A stretch of 39,727 nt of DNA from Patescibacteria group bacterium (GTDB lineage: Bacteria; Patescibacteriota; Microgenomatia; Levybacterales; UBA12049), in the NCBI GenBank assembly GCA_023487605.1, contig JAMDEE010000021.1:1-39727 (forward strand). Reading direction: 5' to 3'. Of the stretch, positions 3,732-38,459 are shown piece by piece. Under the pieces are notes generated by a model, which was given only the letters and a program-made list of their open reading frames with translations, was not told where the DNA came from and did not search any database. A program made the position numbers and the translations under genes. Each line of letters starts with the position of its first letter. Within the stretch, counting starts at the first letter, position 1.

Positions 3732-4082
3732 TTATCCGTTTATATGCGAATTTAAATTTTCAAGAGTATTTTTAAGGCTTAATTCGTATATTAAGTCGTT
3801 ATTTTCCACCCTTAGTCCGGTTATAAGAGACGGTTCTTCTTTGAAAATTATTTTTTTCCCGTCAAAAGCCCCGGAAAGCTGTTTTTCAAATTCTTTGTCT
3901 TTGTAAAGCCTGGGGACGATTACGGTAACTTTTTTTGCGTTTTCAAGTTCCCTTAGAATTTTAATATATTCCTTCAGGTCTTGTCTAGAGAGAAAATTCG
4001 CAATTTTTTTTACTTTCTTTCCATCCAATTCTCCCTTTGTATAGCTGAGTTGTGCTAACTTTTTTATTTTATTTTTTATCAT
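3732..4082 (-). CDS. atpH: ATP synthase delta (OSCP)-like subunit, unusually short (116 aa)
   Basis: It sits between atpF and atpA, and its ATG overlaps the atpF stop. The C-terminal half (EEPSLITGLRVENNDLIYELSLKNTLENL) resembles the delta C-terminal domain. Most of the N-terminal domain is missing. Confidence 0.6.
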   Translation of the reverse strand: MIKNKIKKLAQLSYTKGELDGKKVKKIANFLSRQDLKEYIKILRELENAKKVTVIVPRLYKDKEFEKQLSGAFDGKKIIFKEEPSLITGLRVENNDLIYELSLKNTLENLNSHING

Positions 4083-4585
4083 GATTTTTTACCTTTTAAC
4101 TCTTTTACCGCTTTTTCTATCAATTGTTTTTGCTCTTTTTCTCCAAACATCTGTCCCAAAGATTTTGTTAACAGTTCAATGGAGAGATTAGTAATATTCT
4201 GGGACAGCCTTCTTTCTGTTTCTTTTGCTTCCTGCTCGATTTGCCTCCTTGCTTCCTCCAGTATCTTTTCCGCCTGTTTTCTGGAATTATCCTCTATTTC
4301 TTTTGAAATATTAATCGCTTCCGTATTAGCGTCTTCAACAATTTTTTTCGACTGGTCCTGAGCTTTTTTAAGGATTTTTTTCTCTTCTTCGAGCGCTTTT
4401 TCTAAGGCCAGCCTTCCTTCCTCGGCCTGTTTTATCCCTTCCTTAATAGAAGTTTCTCTTTTTTTAAGCATGTCCATAACAGGCTTATAAAGAAGCTTTT
4501 TAAGGATAAATAGAATAATTAAAAAATTTACAATTTGAGCGACCAACAAAATTGGATCAAACCCAAAATTTTTAAGTATTTCCAT
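4079..4585 (-). CDS. atpF: Fo ATP synthase b subunit
   Basis: 168 aa with one N-terminal TM helix followed by a long charged coiled coil (E/K-rich). Operon position supports the call. Confidence 0.78.
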   Translation of the reverse strand: MEILKNFGFDPILLVAQIVNFLIILFILKKLLYKPVMDMLKKRETSIKEGIKQAEEGRLALEKALEEEKKILKKAQDQSKKIVEDANTEAINISKEIEDNSRKQAEKILEEARRQIEQEAKETERRLSQNITNLSIELLTKSLGQMFGEKEQKQLIEKAVKELKGKKS

Positions 4586-4591
4586 AAAATT

Positions 4592-4801
4592 TTATTTCCC
4601 GATAAAGGCAAATATTAAAGAATAAATTGCAATAGCTTCCGCAAAAGCCATTCCTAAAAGCATTGCAGGCAGAATTCTTCCGGTTGCTTCGGGATTTCTT
4701 CCGATAGCTTCCATAGCTTTGGCGCCGATTAAACCGATTGCCAAAGCGGCCATTTGACCTCCGATTGCAATAATTAGGCCTCCTGATATACTAAATGTCA
4801 T
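4592..4801 (-). CDS. atpE: Fo ATP synthase c subunit
   Basis: 69-aa helical hairpin proteolipid with a GRNPE loop and carboxylate motif AFAEAIAIY. Confidence 0.88.
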   Translation of the reverse strand: MTFSISGGLIIAIGGQMAALAIGLIGAKAMEAIGRNPEATGRILPAMLLGMAFAEAIAIYSLIFAFIGK

Positions 4802-5550
4802 TTGTGACTCACCTCCTTGGCCTCAGTGTGATGAGGCGTTGAAAGTATTGCCATAAATGCCATTGTCAGCATTGCAAAAACGAGTGCCTGAACAAAACCT
4901 ACGATAAACTCCAAGAGTAAAAACGGAAGGGGAGCGATGAATGCAAATATAGACGCAATTGTTCCCAGGACTATTTCTCCGGCGTAGATATTGCCGAAAA
5001 GACGGAAAGAGAGCGAAATTATTTTTGTTATTTCGGAAATCATTTCTAAAAACCCTATGAATTGGTTCATAGGGTTAATTGAAAAATATCTGCCTAAATA
5101 CTCCTTAATTCCTATAATCTTGATGCTGATTACATGTGTGGCAACCGCCGATACAAGCGCCAGGCCCAGAGTGGTGTTTAAGTCTGTTGTAGCGCTTCTA
5201 AGAAGCGGAACAAGCGTTTTGCTTTTTCCTACCCCCTCATAGAAACCGATAGTCCCGAACCCCGGAATAAGGCCTGACCAGTTAGCAAGCAAAATAAATA
5301 TAAAGAAAGTTGCAAAAAACGGAAAAATTCTTGCGGCTCTTTCGGGCGCTACCGATTCGGTTAAGTTATACATAGTTTCAACAGCATACTCGGAAATATT
5401 TTGGACAAATCCGGGGATTAACTTTAAATGTTTTTTTATATAAATAGCTATGCCTACCAAAACACCGTCGACAATTAATGTATCCAGTAAGGTGTTTGTC
5501 ACACTAAAAAAGCCCAAACGAAATATAGGTTCTGCTGCAAATGAAACCAC
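4798..5550 (-). CDS. atpB: Fo ATP synthase a subunit (GTG start)
   Basis: 250-aa polytopic membrane protein with the conserved SLSFRLFGNIYAGE motif. First gene of the atp operon. Confidence 0.87.
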   Translation of the reverse strand: MVSFAAEPIFRLGFFSVTNTLLDTLIVDGVLVGIAIYIKKHLKLIPGFVQNISEYAVETMYNLTESVAPERAARIFPFFATFFIFILLANWSGLIPGFGTIGFYEGVGKSKTLVPLLRSATTDLNTTLGLALVSAVATHVISIKIIGIKEYLGRYFSINPMNQFIGFLEMISEITKIISLSFRLFGNIYAGEIVLGTIASIFAFIAPLPFLLLEFIVGFVQALVFAMLTMAFMAILSTPHHTEAKEVSHK

Positions 5551-5557
5551 GTAATTT

Positions 5558-5586
5558 ATTTTATAAAGAAAATAGCTTCAAGTCAA
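5558..5586 (-). promoter_or_regulatory. atp operon promoter TTGACT-17-TAAAAT, 7 nt upstream of the atpB GTG
   Basis: The minus strand reads cttcTTGACTtgaagctattttctttaTAAAATaaattacGTG. The -35 box overlaps the dnaE stop codon. No SD is present. Confidence 0.5.
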
Positions 5587-8500
5587 GAAGAAAAACGGCT
5601 AAAAGCGGATATTTTTTCGGCAATAATTATCGGTTTGTCGTTTTTTGTGTCTATTTTGCCGTTTACAACGATGACGGAATCCTTTGTTAAAATGTTTTTG
5701 TACTGCTCAAATACCCTCGGGAAAATAATACACTCGGCAACCAGACCCTTTTCGTCACTGACTGTAACAAAAGCCATTTCACTGCCGTTTTTCTTTGTAA
5801 AAATTCTCCTGATTGTTTCGATAAGGCCTCCTATTGTAACCTGAGTGCCCTCATTTTCTTCCGGCAGAAGCTCTATATCGTGCGTGACTACGGATCTTAG
5901 TTTGGTAAGGCTTTCCATTTGGGGGTGTGACGTTAAGTAAAAACCCAAAAACTCTTTTTCGAAAGCAAGTTTTTCATTGGGTGAAAAATCTTCAACGTTG
6001 CCTGCGGTAGATCCGGGCGGGTCGTCATCCTGTTCGTCAAAAAGGCTCGTCTGGCCCGATTGGCTTTGTTTCAATTTTCTGTGGGAATTTTCAATTATTT
6101 CGGGATATGTAATTAAAAGATTGGCCCGTTTACCGAAAATATCCATGGCACCTGCCTTGATAAGGCTTTCTACGGTTTTTTTATTCACGGCTCCAAGGTC
6201 TACTTTTGAACAAAAATCTTCAAGGCTTTTGAACGGACCATTTTCTCTTTGTTTGAGAATACTTCCTATTGCCGCGTCTCCGACATTTTTTATTGCAGAT
6301 AAGCCGAATCTTATCTTTGTTTTATCTTCAATTGTAAATTCATCTCCGGATTTATTTATGTCTGGAGGCAGAACCGTAACCTTCAGCCTTTTGCATTCGG
6401 CGACAGCCTGGGCAATTTTTTCATTTTTTACAGGCCCGGTGGTGCCCCTTGATTCTGCGGTTAAAAGCGCGGTCATAAACTCTACGGGAAAGTGGGCTTT
6501 AAGGTAAGCCGTTCTAAAGGCAATAGTTGCATAGCATGCGGCATGTGCCTTGCCGAAACCATATCCCGCAAAGGGTTCAAAAAGAATCCATAAGTTTTCG
6601 GCGTTTTTTTTGTTCATTCCGTTGGTAACGCAGCCGTCAACAAATTTATCATGCTGTTTTTTCATTTCGGCGGGAATTTTTTTACCGACGGCTTTTCTTA
6701 ATTTATCGGCTTCAAGCCAGGAGTATCCTGCGACTTTAATAGCGGTTAAAAGCAAATCGTCCTGAAAAGTTATAATACCGTAAGACTCTTTGAGTACATC
6801 CTCAAGCCTCGGGTCGGGGTATTTAATAAAGTTAGGGTTATTTTTACGTTTAATGAATTCGGGAATATTTGCCATCGGACCCGGACGGTAGAGGGCTACC
6901 ATTGCCTGCAGGTCAAATATGGAAGAGGGTTTTAATTCTTTTACGTAGCGCCTCATCCCCGACGACTCAAGCTGAAAAATTCCGGTTGTTTCGCCTGAAG
7001 CTAAAAGATCGTAAGTTTTTTTATCTTCAAACGGAACTTTTGAAAAATCAATGTCGAGCCCCTGGTTATCTTTTATAAACTTAAGGGCCTCCTGGATAAT
7101 TGTTAAATTTCTAAGTCCCAAGAAGTCTATTTTCAAAAGACCTACTCCGTCTTCACCTATACTGTACATATCGTATTGGGTGATTATTTTTTCTCCGTTT
7201 GTTTCTCTTTGCAAAGGCGTATATTCGGTTATATCTTTATCGGCAATAACGACTCCCGCCGCATGTACCGAAGCATGCCTGGCCACACCTTCCAGTTTTT
7301 TGGCCAGGTCTAAAAGTTTTCTGGTTTCGGTTTCGGTTTGATAGACAAGTCTGAGTTCGGGATTTTGCTCCATAGCTTTATCTATCGTCATTGCGTGCCC
7401 CTGCCAGCCGGGCGGAATCATTTTGGATATCCTGTCGGGACCGGAATAGGGCATACCCATAACTCTTCCCGTATCCCTGACAGAACCTCTTGCCTCCATG
7501 GTTCCGAAAGTTATTATTTGGGCCACCTTATCTCTTCCGTATTTTTCCCTGACGTACTCAATTACTTCGTCTCTTCTGTTGTCTGCAAAATCCAGGTCTA
7601 TATCGGGCGGAGAGGGGCGCATCGGGTTTAAAAATCTCTCAAAAGGAAGCTTAAAATATAACGGGTCTATATCGGAAATACCCAGGGCATAAGATACAAT
7701 GGAACCTGCGTTTGAACCTCTGCCGGGACCGACCGTAATGCCCCGGGATTTCGCCCAATTAACGAAGTCCGCAACTATTAAAATATACGTTTCGTAGCCT
7801 TTTTTAAGAATAATAGACAGTTCGTAATCAGCCCTTTCTTTTATTTCGGGGGATATTTTTTTATATCTGTTCTTGAGTCCTTCTTCTACCTTAATTTGCA
7901 TATACTCGGCAGGGGTTTTCCCTTCCGGAACTTCGAATTTAGGCATAATCCATTTTCCAAGCGTTATTTCCACATTGCACATATCGGCAATTTTTATTGT
8001 GTTTTCTATAGCTTCGGGGATTTGTATGAAAGCGCCTGTCATTTCTTCGGAGCTTTTGATATAAAAATCCGGTGAATCTATCATCGAAAGTTTTCTGTTT
8101 GGGGTATCTAATGTCGTTTGAGTTTGAATACAGAGCAGTGTTTCCTGGGCTTGTGCATCCGTATTATATATATAATGGTTATCGTTTGTCGCAACAAGGG
8201 GAAGGCCTAATTTTTCTGAGAGTTTAATCAATTTTTCATTCAATTTATCCTGGTCCTTTATGTTTATATGTTTTTGCAGTTCCAGATAAAAATGGTCCTT
8301 GCCGAAAATTTCGGCCAGCGTCTCGGCTCTTTTTTCTGCCTCGTCGTCCCGGTTATTGAGTAGGGGATCGGAAACATACCCGCCGATGCACGCGCTAAGA
8401 CATATAAGCCCTTCGTGGTGCTCTTTTAAAAGTTCCATATCTGTTCTTGGCTTGTAATAATAGCCTTCCAAATTTGCAATGGAAATAATTTTCATCAGGT

Positions 8501-34586: not shown

Positions 34587-35420
34587 TTAAAGGGGTATCG
34601 GCAGGAAGTTTTGGGAAAGATTAATTTTTAACGTATCATTCAACCAGTGCTTTCCGTGTGCAGGCGCGTAGGCTTGTTCTTTTGCCGGTGTCGGCAAGCC
34701 GGAGGGTTCTTTCGGAAAAGCATATCCTATTATGTGTCCGAAGTCTACGAACCAGGGACTTCTCAAAAGAATATTTTTTGTTCCTATCCTCATTTGTACA
34801 GCGGCGCCCTTAGTCTTGTCGCTTCCTGTTAGTTTAGATACGTCAATTTTCCAAAAATCCTCGGACGCTGCAGTTTTTTCCGATGTTGCTTCCAGGGTTC
34901 CTTTTAATAACCGGCCGGAGCTATAGTCGTAAACTAAACCGAAAGCAAATCCGTCCTTACTTATTTTTCCATTAACTTTCATTAACTTATGTTTTCCTGC
35001 CGGTGCCAGAGACATTTCAAATTTGTCGCCGTTGGGCGGGGTTAAAGTAAGAGAGCGGAAATCCCAGGCGGGGCGGGAGGGTAAGGGTTCCAGGCCCAAG
35101 TCGGCAAGTTCTTCGGGCGTAAAGTCTGTAGGTTCTTCCCTAACGGAAAATGTAGCCACCGCATTTTGTTTAAAGTCCGCACCGGCGGGGGAAAAATACT
35201 CAACCGTAATTGTTTTGTCGTCTGCTTTTCTGACCATACCTAAATTTTGCGCGTCGGTAGACAAAATTTGTTCTCCTGTTGCGTGTCCCGATTCCCAGGT
35301 TAAATCTTTAACGTAATTTCTGAAGTTTGCAATATCAGCAGGCTTAATAGACGCGGGTTGTTCCGGTGTTTTTAAAATTGTCGGTTTTGGACCAAGTTGT
35401 CCTGTTGTTTCTTCCGGCAT
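34587..35420 (-). CDS. Hypothetical protein (277 aa), no recognisable domain, GC-richer than its neighbours
   Basis: The start is moved to the internal ATG 35420 (MPEETTGQ). A terminator hairpin and a TTGTAA-17-TATACT promoter lie inside the 5' extension of the track ORF (up to 35552). Confidence 0.5.
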   Translation of the reverse strand: MPEETTGQLGPKPTILKTPEQPASIKPADIANFRNYVKDLTWESGHATGEQILSTDAQNLGMVRKADDKTITVEYFSPAGADFKQNAVATFSVREEPTDFTPEELADLGLEPLPSRPAWDFRSLTLTPPNGDKFEMSLAPAGKHKLMKVNGKISKDGFAFGLVYDYSSGRLLKGTLEATSEKTAASEDFWKIDVSKLTGSDKTKGAAVQMRIGTKNILLRSPWFVDFGHIIGYAFPKEPSGLPTPAKEQAYAPAHGKHWLNDTLKINLSQNFLPIPL

Positions 35421-35428
35421 ACAAGGGG

Positions 35429-35457
35429 AGTATAGGACAAAATCGGAAATATTACAA
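35429..35457 (-). promoter_or_regulatory. Promoter TTGTAA-17-TATACT, 8 nt upstream of ATG 35420
   Basis: The minus strand reads aatTTGTAAtatttccgattttgtccTATACTccccttgtATG. Confidence 0.45.
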
Positions 35458-35468
35458 ATTTTAGCCGC

Positions 35469-35488
35469 AAAAAAACCCCTTGCGGGGT
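35469..35488 (-). terminator. Intrinsic terminator downstream of the three-gene cassette
   Basis: The minus strand reads ACCCC-gcaa-GGGGT followed by a T run of at least 6. The stem is short and GC-rich with a GNRA-type loop. Confidence 0.45.
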
Positions 35489-35608
35489 CTTTTCGGGGTA
35501 ACTTTATTGCTAAAGTCTCCTGCCTTTTGAAACTTACGTTTCTGAGGTACATGCATTTTAACCTATGTATATAAACATGTCAATAGGGACAAACTAGGTC
35601 AAATCCAG

Positions 35609-35738
35609 TCAATATTATTACAAATATTAGAATGTTTGAGATACTACTTAACCGTTGTAAGGTTGTGAAGTCCGTTTTAACAGCTCAAAGAGGTCTTTTT
35701 TATCCACGCTTATATTCTGTTTAATCCGATTTTGTATT
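35609..35738 (+). repeat. 130-bp direct repeat, left copy
   Basis: Hand-aligned to 36646-36775 with 129/130 identity. The only difference is C at 35621 versus A at 36658. Confidence 0.9.
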
Positions 35739-35769: not shown

Positions 35770-36015
35770 TCACAAATGTATATCTACATCATATACCTTA
35801 ATTGTGTTGTTTGCTGGCTTATATGTAAAACCCCAGTAATGTTTGTTTATTCTAAACCTCCAAAGTTGTCCACCCGAACCAACTAGGGGCTTAAAATCTA
35901 AAGAAGTATAATTTGAATTAGTTTTCAAAAACCCTATTTGCTTATCAAACTTCTTTGTAATTCCAAAACTCTTTGCTTTTTTAATTGCTTTATCATCAAC
36001 AATTACACTAATCAC
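35770..36015 (-). CDS. RelE/ParE-superfamily-like small protein (putative toxin), GTG start
   Basis: 81 aa. The C-terminal pattern GGQLWRFRINKHYWGFTYKPANNTIKVYDVDIH fits the RelE/ParE consensus (W.(F/L)R(I/V)..(Y/H)R..Y...n..I.V..V..H). The GTG overlaps the upstream stop by 8 nt. Confidence 0.5.
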   Translation of the reverse strand: MISVIVDDKAIKKAKSFGITKKFDKQIGFLKTNSNYTSLDFKPLVGSGGQLWRFRINKHYWGFTYKPANNTIKVYDVDIHL

Positions 36016-36295
36016 TATATTCAGGTAAGTCCTTAAGCCCTGCGATTATTCTCTCTAATTGTTCTTCCGTATAAGAACCAGAGGCTTTTAATGAAGCCTT
36101 CAATTTTCCTAAATCAGGAAAATCAAAAGTAGTCATAAATGAAAGTTCGTCAACTTCTGGCATAATATCTTTCCAAACGACACTCCATTTTGGCAATGGT
36201 TGTGGAGACAACGGCATTAGAACCTCATTGATAACACTTAGGTCAAATGCTTCTAAATCCTGAATTTTGTCTAATGTATATGGTTGATTAATCAT
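36008..36295 (-). CDS. Hypothetical acidic 95-aa protein (putative antitoxin position)
   Basis: The start is taken at MINQPYTL (ATG 36295), which overlaps the upstream stop as ATGATTAA. No domain was recognised. Confidence 0.45.
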   Translation of the reverse strand: MINQPYTLDKIQDLEAFDLSVINEVLMPLSPQPLPKWSVVWKDIMPEVDELSFMTTFDFPDLGKLKASLKASGSYTEEQLERIIAGLKDLPEYSD

Positions 36296-36554
36296 CTTGC
36301 TTGCCTTTCTTTTTCTTTTCATGCAGATTTTGCGTTTGCAATATAGTTTGAGCCAAAGCTATACCAGAACCTAATGGAAGAGTTACCCTAGCAACAACCT
36401 GTCCTTTAGTAACATCGCTAGGGTTAATGTAAGCAAATTCTATTGTTAAATCTATATCTGTAACCGTTACTCTTGCGATTTGGGAATAAGCACTTCCCAC
36501 GACAGTACCAGTGTTTATTACAGTTTCTACCGTTTGTGGTGTTTTGTCAGCCAT
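36288..36554 (-). CDS. DUF3467-like small protein (88 aa)
   Basis: The start is taken at MADKTPQ (ATG 36554), 7 nt downstream of TGgTATAAT. The pattern YSQIARVTVTDIDLTIEFAYINP...VVARVTLP...LAQTILQ resembles the DUF3467 consensus; this comes from recall only. Confidence 0.45.
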   Translation of the reverse strand: MADKTPQTVETVINTGTVVGSAYSQIARVTVTDIDLTIEFAYINPSDVTKGQVVARVTLPLGSGIALAQTILQTQNLHEKKKKGKQDD

Positions 36555-36561
36555 TATTGAA

Positions 36562-36570
36562 ATTATACCA
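36562..36570 (-). promoter_or_regulatory. Extended -10 promoter (TGgTATAAT), 7 nt upstream of ATG 36554
   Basis: The minus strand reads cagtaTGGTATAATttcaataATG. No SD is present. Confidence 0.5.
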
Positions 36571-36645
36571 TACTGTCGCAAATTTTCTCACAACCTTCTG
36601 TTTTAATAATATCAAGGCTCTACGTGCTTAAACTACACATTAGCC

Positions 36646-36775
36646 TCAATATTATTAAAAATATTAGAATGTTTGAGATACTACTTAACCGTTGTAAGGT
36701 TGTGAAGTCCGTTTTAACAGCTCAAAGAGGTCTTTTTTATCCACGCTTATATTCTGTTTAATCCGATTTTGTATT
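36646..36775 (+). repeat. 130-bp direct repeat, right copy (continues into the DUF2958 gene)
   Basis: See the left copy. This copy overlaps the first codons of the ORF starting at 36769. Confidence 0.9.
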
Positions 36776-37035
36776 CCAAAGAAAACGAAAAAGATCCGAT
36801 GGTCGTTTGTAAGTTCTTTTTACCTTTAACTAAATGGGCTTGGTACGCAACCGGGTTTGACGGAAAAGACACATTTTTCGGCTTTGTTTGCGGAGAATAT
36901 CCCGAACTCGGATATTTTTCCTTATCTGAACTTGAAAACCTCGAAGGCCCTTACGGCTTAGGCGTTGAACGAGATAGGTATTTCGAACCCGTCAGATTAT
37001 CTGAAATTCAAAGCATTATTCTTAAAAACCGCTAA
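36769..37035 (+). CDS. DUF2958-domain protein (start uncertain; TTG in the track)
   Basis: The sequence LYSKENEKDPMVVCKFFLPLTKWAWYATGFDG...FGFVCGEYPELGYFSLSELENLEGPYGLGVERDRYFEP matches the DUF2958 pattern seen on plasmids and ICEs. The N-terminus may be encoded in another frame upstream. Confidence 0.65.
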   Translation: MYSKENEKDPMVVCKFFLPLTKWAWYATGFDGKDTFFGFVCGEYPELGYFSLSELENLEGPYGLGVERDRYFEPVRLSEIQSIILKNR

Positions 37036-37708: not shown

Positions 37709-37897
37709 TCAAGCTAACTCAACAATTGAGTGGTCCCAAATACCAAGATGTGAGCCGGGTGGGACTACACTTCGCCAAGGCTTCGAGTAGCAGGATTTCC
37801 CTGACTGATATTTTTTCAAACGATTTTTTAAATCTGGGGTATATCCTACATAATAACGGGAGGTTGATAGATTATGAAGAATGTATGTATAAAACAT
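37709..37897 (-). pseudogene. Truncated/decayed GIY-YIG nuclease-family gene
   Basis: The N-terminus FYTYILHNLSTSRYYVGYTPDLKNRLKKYQSGK is a typical GIY-YIG motif. The ORF then diverges after about 45 aa and stops at 62 aa. Confidence 0.5.
37864..37893 (+). promoter_or_regulatory. Putative promoter TTGATA-18-TATAAA for the PLD-nuclease operon
   Basis: The sequence is TTGATAgattatgaagaatgtatgTATAAA. It lies inside, and antisense to, the GIY-YIG remnant and predicts a leader of about 110 nt. Confidence 0.35.
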
Positions 37898-38009: not shown

Positions 38010-38459
38010 ATGAATAGCTTTCTTATCTCCAAACTTTACGACGAAACGACCTTCTACCAAGCATTTTTAACCGATTTAGAGGCTTGTAGAAACGAGGTTA
38101 TCATCGAAAGCCCATATATTACCTCCGAAAGAACCAGGCCCTTTATACCTCTTTTTACCCGCTTGATTGAAAAGGGTGTAAAAATATATGTTTTTACCAG
38201 AGACCCTAAGGAACACGAAGAAATTATGGAATACCAGTCGGAAGAAGTGATTTCTTTGTTTGAAAGAATGGGAGCTCAAGTTCTACTTTGTATCGGAAAT
38301 CATCACAGAAAGTTGGCCATCCTAGACCGAAAAGTACTTTACGAAGGAAGTCTTAACATTCTTTCCCAAAACCACAGCCGGGAAATTATGAGAAGAATTC
38401 AATCGAAGAAATTAGCGATGGAAATTTTTCATTTCTTAAAACTTGAAAAATTCCTTTAA
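38010..38459 (+). CDS. Single-HKD phospholipase D-family (Nuc-like) nuclease, no signal peptide
   Basis: 149 aa with an HxK(x)4D motif in GNHHRKLAILD followed by GSLNI. Strong SD (AAGGAGG). Confidence 0.75.
   Translation: MNSFLISKLYDETTFYQAFLTDLEACRNEVIIESPYITSERTRPFIPLFTRLIEKGVKIYVFTRDPKEHEEIMEYQSEEVISLFERMGAQVLLCIGNHHRKLAILDRKVLYEGSLNILSQNHSREIMRRIQSKKLAMEIFHFLKLEKFL

Follow-up and report, generated by a model that had tools for sequence, protein, structure and literature searches.

The 39,727-nt contig JAMDEE010000021.1 of a Patescibacteria group bacterium (Microgenomatia, Levybacterales; assembly GCA_023487605.1), referred to here over its full length as the window, carries a minus-strand operon of three small genes, P1, P2, and P3, that is probably a toxin–antitoxin (TA) system in nature. 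P1 belongs to the DUF3467 family and, judged by sequence comparison, is a head gene common to at least four toxin families in Microgenomates. An earlier note on this DNA, the original prediction, had claimed three minus-strand genes of 88, 95, and 81 aa joined by two 8-nt overlaps, and these were present in the sequence as claimed:

36554–36288, minus strand: P1, ATG start, 88 aa, DUF3467 family (Microgenomates subfamily)
36295–36008, minus strand: P2, ATG start, 95 aa, putative dedicated antitoxin
36015–35770, minus strand: P3, GTG start, 81 aa, putative toxin
36295–36288, minus strand: 8-nt P1/P2 overlap ATGATTAA, containing the P1 stop and the P2 start
36015–36008, minus strand: 8-nt P2/P3 overlap GTGATTAG, containing the P2 stop and the P3 start

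These co-oriented small genes are coupled stop to start, and an acidic partner (P2, isoelectric point (pI) 4.3) precedes a basic putative toxin (P3, pI 9.9), which is the layout of type II TA operons. We counted the charge complementarity of P2 and P3 in favor of a TA pair.

Partner exchange behind a conserved first gene

We collected P1-seeded loci from GTDB species genomes (25 loci) and from Joint Genome Institute (JGI) metagenomes (80 loci), and used local hidden Markov models and Pfam to assign the next two genes after P1 to types. Dereplication at 95% P1 identity left 77 loci with the following arrangements:

Type A, P2 and a YoeB-like P3: 23 of 77 loci
Type B, an unrelated middle protein and a second RelE-like toxin clade: 35 of 77 loci
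Type C, a DUF433 protein and an unassigned protein of 125–150 aa: 10 of 77 loci
Type D, another unclassified pair: 3 of 77 loci
Type E, a 79-aa protein and a PIN_3 domain protein: 1 of 77 loci
No pair after P1: 2 of 77 loci
Contig ending before the pair: 3 of 77 loci

With the truncated contigs set aside, 74 dereplicated loci could be scored, and in 72 of these a TA-like pair came directly after P1. RelE/ParE-like genes, for which the original prediction had proposed surveying the neighborhoods of DUF3467 homologs, were found in types A (23) and B (35). The type B toxin profile matched YoeB (1e-5) and RelE (4e-3) in the PDB. A direct link between the type A and type B RelE-like clades was rejected because hhalign between them was not significant, so we treated them as separate clades of the superfamily. 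DUF433 assignments in type C had E-values of 1e-11 to 1e-19, and the PIN_3 match in type E had E = 4.6e-10. The third genes of types C and D had no Pfam assignment, and their likeness to PIN/DUF5615 and HicA was seen by eye only.

P1 did not sort by partner. Identity between P1 proteins was 0.50–0.54 within a partner type and 0.46–0.50 between types, and the nearest-neighbor P1 belonged to a different partner type in 16/68 cases. P1 is therefore an exchangeable, conserved head gene for several TA-like pairs. Seeding with P3 instead of P1 recovered the order DUF3467, P2-like, P3-like in all seven contigs that reached far enough upstream (L003, L007–L011, and L014), and the flanks differed among these triads (gyrA/carAB, nusG/rnhB, an IS1595 transposase, and ddl). 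The three-gene order thus recurs between unrelated flanks. Neither its absence from other genomes nor the lack of a RelE/ParE fold in P3, either of which the original prediction would have taken as refutation, was observed, and the hedged reading given there is supported. In locus L016, a type B triad lay between two opposite-strand 729-aa genes (701–2890 and 3922–6111) that are possibly paralogous.

The two overlaps go beyond chance, since the relative with a 78% identical P3 (L003) kept both of them despite substitutions (ATGACTAA and GTGACTAA). An 8-nt junction of the ATGAnTAA type between P1 and the second gene was the dominant form in both type A (16/24 loci) and type B (20/35 loci). Between genes two and three, an 8-nt junction was found in only six type A loci, all close to the window. 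Obligatory co-translation, which the original prediction inferred from the overlaps, was an overstatement for P2, whose ATG has a Shine–Dalgarno (SD)-like AAAGG 8 nt upstream, within the lysine codons of the P1 tail. Only P3, with a GTG start and no SD motif before it on reading of the sequence, seems strictly dependent on coupling. Upstream, the P2 frame also stays open as far as a second possible ATG at 36322, which would give a 104-aa form that starts with MKRKRKASKM and overlaps P1 by 35 nt. Many loci had such an MK(R/I)KRK extension of the second gene, and it is common because it is the +1 reading of the lysine-rich P1 tail. Some loci lacked the extension, which suggests that the downstream ATG is the true P2 start.

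The three proteins and their promoter

P1 scored 26.1 bits against Pfam DUF3467 (PF11950), for which the gathering score is 25, with residues 17–80 aligned to model positions 22–85 of 92. The likeness to DUF3467 noted earlier thus passes the family's own threshold, and many P1 homologs carry a precomputed PF11950 assignment. A profile search with P1 gave 258 homologs at E ≤ 1e-3, and all of the named ones were from the Microgenomates group of the candidate phyla radiation (CPR), specifically Roizman-, Levy-, Shapiro-, Curtiss-, Gottesman-, and Daviesbacteria. The AlphaFold2 model of P1, built from 120 sequences, had a mean predicted local distance difference test score (pLDDT) of 82 and consisted of four beta-strands followed by a 24-residue helix at 61–84. 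Foldseek gave no significant match for this fold in the PDB or BFVD, with PURA repeats appearing only at probability 0.07–0.15, and the P1 sequence profile found nothing in the PDB. DUF3467 has almost no literature, and a full-text search returned a single incidental mention.

The modeled structure of P3 confirmed a RelE/ParE-superfamily fold closest to YoeB/YafQ, in agreement with the RelE/ParE-like third gene of the original prediction. The AlphaFold2 model, made from the family alignment, had a pLDDT of 92 and the strand (E) and helix (H) order E-H-H-E-E-E. Only RelE-superfamily toxins stood at the top of the Foldseek matches in the PDB (probability 1.0, template modeling (TM) score 0.74–0.76), including YoeB/ParE 6n90, YoeB 2a6r, S. 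aureus YoeB 7v6w, YafQ 4q2u, M. tuberculosis RelK, and RelE, and HigB was likewise among the matches at probability 1.0. The TM score was 0.74–0.76 against YoeB and 0.56 against ParE2 (5cw7). The P3 family profile matched S. aureus YoeB in the PDB (chain 7v5y, E = 2e-4), and P3 matched a PHROG 'RelE-like toxin' family over its full length (E = 2.9e-4). P3 alone had no match in Pfam, NCBIfam, PADLOC, or PDB sequences. Pfam matches among its homologs were to ParE_like (5/15), HigB-like_toxin (4/15), ParE_toxin (3/15), and YoeB (1/15). A word-indexed search with P3 returned P3 itself and one relative, 78% identical, from Rifle groundwater metagenomes. To find the family used here, 1.84 billion representative proteins were searched exhaustively with a profile, which gave roughly 16 genuine members at 30–53% identity.

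P2 had no match in Pfam, NCBIfam, PADLOC, or the PDB, nothing significant in PHROGs, and no similarity to the YefM/Phd or RelB families, and a word-indexed search returned only P2 itself and one relative. The earlier description of an acidic middle gene with no recognizable DNA-binding domain agrees with this, and Pfam assigned no DNA-binding domain to the middle proteins. In an alignment of the genes upstream of P3 homologs, the N-terminal half of P2 was variable and the C-terminal ~45 residues were conserved, with the motif LSFM..F.FP.L..L..SL..SG.Y..EQ...I..GL..LPEY. P2 ends at LPEY, with one or two residues following, in the window and in most of its closest relatives, where it overlaps or abuts the start of P3. 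Some of the more distant type A middle proteins had short basic tails. P2-type and P3-type genes co-occurred in 39/39 complete type A loci. From its position, its charge, and this strict co-occurrence, P2 is likely the cognate antitoxin of P3.

The middle proteins of types A and B, otherwise unrelated, share the N-terminal sequence M-[TI]-N-x-Q-[PLG]-[YF] (window 36295–36270; loci L015–L120). An h-x-W-h motif was found in the N-terminal half of 10/21 type A and 15/35 type B proteins, compared with 4.7 and 7.2 in shuffled sequences. Such shared motifs may serve to dock P1, or they may be a scar left by recombination.

Upstream of P1 we identified the following elements:

36562–36591, minus strand: operon promoter, with -35 GTGAGA at 36591–36586, an 18-nt spacer, and an extended -10 TG-n-TATAAT at 36570–36562
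36593–36599, minus strand: SD-like, purine-rich AGAAGGT box immediately preceding the -35

Both the reading of the sequence and a consensus scan gave this promoter. Its -10 box ends 7 nt before the P1 ATG, and there is no SD motif. With the transcription start placed from the position of the -10, the P1 mRNA is predicted to be leaderless, as the original prediction had called it. The same geometry was widespread, as a -10 box ended 4–11 nt before the P1 ATG (mode 6–7) in 54/71 dereplicated loci, 43 of which had the TG extension, and only 2/71 had an SD-like motif before P1. Leaderless expression of P1 is, by these sequence patterns, a trait of the family.

Boxes of the AAGGAGGTG type at -80 to -38 occurred in 22/71 loci, compared with a mean of 7.3 and a maximum of 13 in shuffles and 9/71 in a control region. 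A near-perfect SD-like purine box (AAGGAGGTG) stood just before the -35 of the leaderless P1 promoter in loci L008, L017, L018, L022, L024, L031, L034, and L036. In several loci the purine box was followed by a mini-open reading frame (ORF) of 3–5 codons that starts in the TTG of the -35. Downstream of the operon, a second, strong promoter-like site (35555–35583, minus strand; TTGACA, 17 nt, TAAAAT; 11/12 matches) lies upstream of the ORF at 34587–35552. It ends 2 nt before the first ATG of this 321-aa ORF, which has no Pfam domain. Either the true start of the ORF is farther downstream or this gene is likewise leaderless.

The flanking repeat and neighboring genes

A direct repeat brackets the operon in the window:

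35609–35738, no strand assigned: copy 1 of the direct repeat (130 nt), which follows the P3 stop by 31 nt
36646–36775, no strand assigned: copy 2 of the direct repeat (130 nt), which precedes the P1 ATG by 91 nt

The original prediction had described the module as the cargo of a repeat-flanked cassette. The 130-nt repeat is real, with copies that differ at one base (C at 35621, A at 36658), but it is not a property of the module, since none of ten other triad loci had flanking repeats. There were only two copies in the 39.7-kb window, and a 26-mer from its core had 0 matches in JGI metagenomes. With other triads lacking repeats and no further copies found, the repeat belongs to this locus and not to the module. 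Folding gave no significant secondary structure on either strand (z-scores of +1.2 and 0.0), and there was no Rfam match. A structured RNA or known RNA family was rejected on these grounds, and an integron attC site was rejected for want of a hairpin or an array, with two copies only and other loci without them.

The repeat could have arisen by insertion with duplication, by single-crossover integration, or through an assembly problem. A minority possibility that we keep in view is that faulty assembly or plain local duplication produced the arrangement, which would then have no bearing on mobility or cassette cargo. It would suit the repeat-free state of the ten other triads, the lack of a hairpin or Rfam match, and the absence of any other copy in the window or JGI metagenomes. 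The one-base difference argues against a trivial assembler duplication, however, and the module, which ends within about 10 nt of the P3 stop as judged against the close relative L003, has a 3′ boundary unlike the one in that relative, which fits relocation of the module. A search for an empty site through the exact neighbor protein found only a 919-bp contig that stops short of the junction.

The neighborhood is accessory in content, with a DUF2958 gene, a truncated GIY-YIG gene, a PLD-like nuclease, an RNase H-like gene, and a phage metallopeptidase. The last 7 nt of repeat copy 2 overlap the start of the plus-strand DUF2958 ORF (36769–37035; Pfam E = 4e-17), which has a TTG start inside the repeat and matches its model only from position 19. 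The rearrangement from which the repeat arose may therefore have truncated this gene at its 5′ end or given it a new start. In the minus-strand ORF at 37709–37897 (62 aa), the match to the GIY-YIG catalytic domain covers no more than the first 35 of the 78 model positions, and this is probably the truncated remnant of a homing-endonuclease-type gene. Beside this fragment lies a PLD-like (PLDc_2) nuclease gene (38010–38459, plus strand).

Precedents, mechanism, and alternatives

The original prediction held the three-gene arrangement to be a TA architecture not known to it. This did not hold up, as paaR2-paaA2-parE2 of E. coli O157:H7 prophage CP-933P has the same layout: its first gene is leaderless, its antitoxin has no DNA-binding domain, and its toxin is of the RelE/ParE family (PMC8630535). 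This is the closest known architecture and precedent, sharing with the P1 triad three co-oriented genes in the order regulator, antitoxin, toxin, a leaderless first gene, and a middle protein with no DNA-binding domain. The first proteins differ, in that PaaR2 is a CI-like repressor of ~15 kDa in a prophage immunity switch, whereas P1 is an acidic-core DUF3467 sheet-plus-helix protein with no recognizable DNA-binding fold and a chromosomal head gene common to at least four toxin families. P3 is also nearer to YoeB/YafQ than to ParE2.

The omega-epsilon-zeta system of pSM19035 likewise has the order regulator, antitoxin, toxin and is regulated by a separate small first protein, as proposed for the P1 triad. 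Omega is a ribbon-helix-helix (RHH) repressor, zeta is a kinase toxin and not of the RelE fold, and the system is plasmid-borne. In systems of the paaR2 and omega type the first protein carries a helix-turn-helix (HTH) or RHH, and P1 has neither. YefM-YoeB, DinJ-YafQ, and RelBE share with the triad the fold of P3 and an acidic upstream partner with a stop/start overlap, but these are two-gene modules whose antitoxins have a DNA-binding domain of their own. There is nothing unusual in the pairing of a RelE-fold toxin with an acidic protein; a leaderless DUF3467 head of uncharacterized fold, common to at least four toxin families across Microgenomates, is out of the ordinary.

We propose that the operon would produce a leaderless mRNA encoding a three-component type II TA system. 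P3 would be a RelE/YoeB-fold toxin that most likely acts on mRNA in a ribosome-dependent manner and blocks translation, with chemistry made uncertain by a remodeled active site. P2 would neutralize P3, probably through its conserved C-terminal ~45 residues. P1 would be a generic, exchangeable head subunit ahead of many TA pairs in Microgenomates, and one half of a 'split antitoxin': it would supply oligomerization and binding to its own promoter, the usual functions of an N-terminal antitoxin domain, and would dock the toxin-specific middle protein, with translational coupling from P1 to P2 keeping both in step. Its function would then be the role of PaaR2 or omega plus contact with the antitoxin. 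We arrived at the split-antitoxin model because the middle proteins lack a DNA-binding domain, P1 is tightly coupled to the second gene whatever the partner, and the type A and B middle proteins share motifs. The gene structure, the P3 fold, the family of P1, the conserved leaderless promoter geometry, the recurrence of the triad, and the range of P1 partners are established here, and from these we infer the toxicity of P3, its neutralization by P2, and the binding of DNA or P2 by P1. The TA nature of the operon is the best-supported part; the whole chain to a three-component type II TA-type operon, with the role of P1 included, is plausible but stops short of probable, and the assignment of P1 as regulator or split antitoxin is tentative.

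Several observations weigh against parts of this model. The P1 core (residues 1–77) is acidic, with a pI of 4.5, and only the tail HEKKKKGKQDD is basic, which is not what binding to DNA would lead one to expect. No HTH, RHH, or AbrB fold was recognized in P1 and Pfam gave no DNA-binding domain. P1 might still bind DNA through a new fold. The 71 promoter regions had no conserved operator-like motif besides the -35, the -10, and the purine box. Given this acidic core, the lack of a known DNA-binding fold, and the lack of an operator, a chaperone or adaptor role for P1 is nearly as likely as that of a regulator. The DUF433 middle proteins of type C, usually considered self-sufficient antitoxins, are also preceded by P1. 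For P3, the difficulty lies in the active site. The catalytic residues of E. coli YoeB are Glu46, Arg65, His83, and Tyr84, and the aligned residues of P3 are K42, W61, H80, and L81, so that only the His is kept (1/4) and equivalents of Glu46, Arg65, and Tyr84 are lacking. Distant members of the P3 family keep Glu and Arg at the Glu46 and Arg65 positions, where the clade of the window has Lys/Gln and Trp, which suggests from the alignment that the catalytic site was remodeled or lost in one sub-clade. Without three of the YoeB catalytic residues, P3 could be a non-nuclease, ParE-like, or inactive; its activity could thus be that of an mRNA interferase with a remodeled site, ParE-like, or nil. 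Active-site positions co-vary within the P3 family alignment.

The principal alternative for P1 is modeled on toxin–antitoxin–chaperone (TAC) systems. P1 would be a protein-level chaperone or adaptor that makes no contact with DNA and stabilizes or folds a labile antitoxin, and its loss or titration would release the toxin. We regard this as possible though rather doubtful. The small size of P1, its acidic core, and its beta-sheet-plus-helix build are compatible with such a role, as is the finding that it pairs with four or more toxin families and does not co-vary with any of them. TAC systems are likewise tripartite, with a conserved third protein that serves several unrelated TA families (PMC5105189, PMC6377645), and pairs of a chaperone and a chaperone-addiction element (ChAD) are transferable (PMC5105189). 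Docking could be through the N-terminal and Trp motifs that the middle proteins of types A and B share, but type C and some of type B lack these motifs. The conserved residues of P1 are of mixed charge, which we read as unlike a basic DNA-binding surface. The TAC chaperone is SecB-like, whereas P1 has no SecB homology: hhalign of its profile against E. coli SecB gave a probability of 4%, and no SecB was among the Foldseek or PDB profile matches. We therefore rejected P1 as SecB-like; for the chaperone role that the original prediction had considered, a SecB-type identity found no support. P2 ends at LPEY and has none of the C-terminal ChAD extension of TAC antitoxins. The gene order is also reversed, since the chaperone gene of the M. 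tuberculosis TAC comes last and P1 comes first, and TAC antitoxins keep DNA-binding domains.

Two further readings concern the operon as a whole. P3 may be a dead or repurposed RelE fold in a non-toxic housekeeping complex, for instance one associated with the ribosome or RNA, and there would then be no working TA system. This we think unlikely. The substitution of three of four YoeB catalytic positions in the window clade, set against the Glu and Arg of distant members, speaks for it, as do the position of P3 itself below every Pfam toxin model and the housekeeping chromosomal contexts of the triads. The active sites of the RelE superfamily are notoriously variable, however, and two bona fide toxin families, PIN and a second RelE clade, stand behind the same head gene. 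Acidic/basic pairing, overlaps, patchy distribution, and swapping of pairs are also TA hallmarks. The other reading, which we find improbable, makes the operon a defense system in which P1 is a conserved subunit that senses or binds a trigger, such as a phage or host cue, with swappable effector pairs that bring about abortive infection in the CRISPR-poor CPR. A conserved head with variable effectors is the typical pattern of defense systems, and the window has accessory or mobile-type neighbors (DUF2958, the GIY-YIG fragment, the PLD-like nuclease, and the phage metallopeptidase). TAC systems are reported to mediate antiphage defense (bioRxiv 10.1101/2024.02.24.581848), which would fit as well. 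PADLOC models matched none of P1, P2, or P3, however, no relatives were found on IMG/VR viral contigs or PLSDB plasmids, and the other triads sit among housekeeping genes (gyrA, carAB, nusG, and ddl) instead of defense islands.

Whichever role P1 has, the 72/74 loci give DUF3467 a strong guilt-by-association context. The modular pattern of head and partners is what drew the field to TAC chaperones, and it suggests one of three roles for the P1 head: an antitoxin domain that can be detached, a chaperone or adaptor of a new, non-SecB kind, or a sensor. More speculatively, DUF3467 might be a new class of universal third component, a hyper-promiscuous head for RelE-like, PIN, DUF433-linked, and other pairs in CPR. 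The setting is that of the CPR and Microgenomates, mostly uncultured bacteria with small genomes that are reported to lack CRISPR in the main (PMC4742961). If DUF3467 is such a universal third component, this would provide the first functional handle on the widespread bacterial and archaeal DUF3467 family, whose fold is without a characterized relative.

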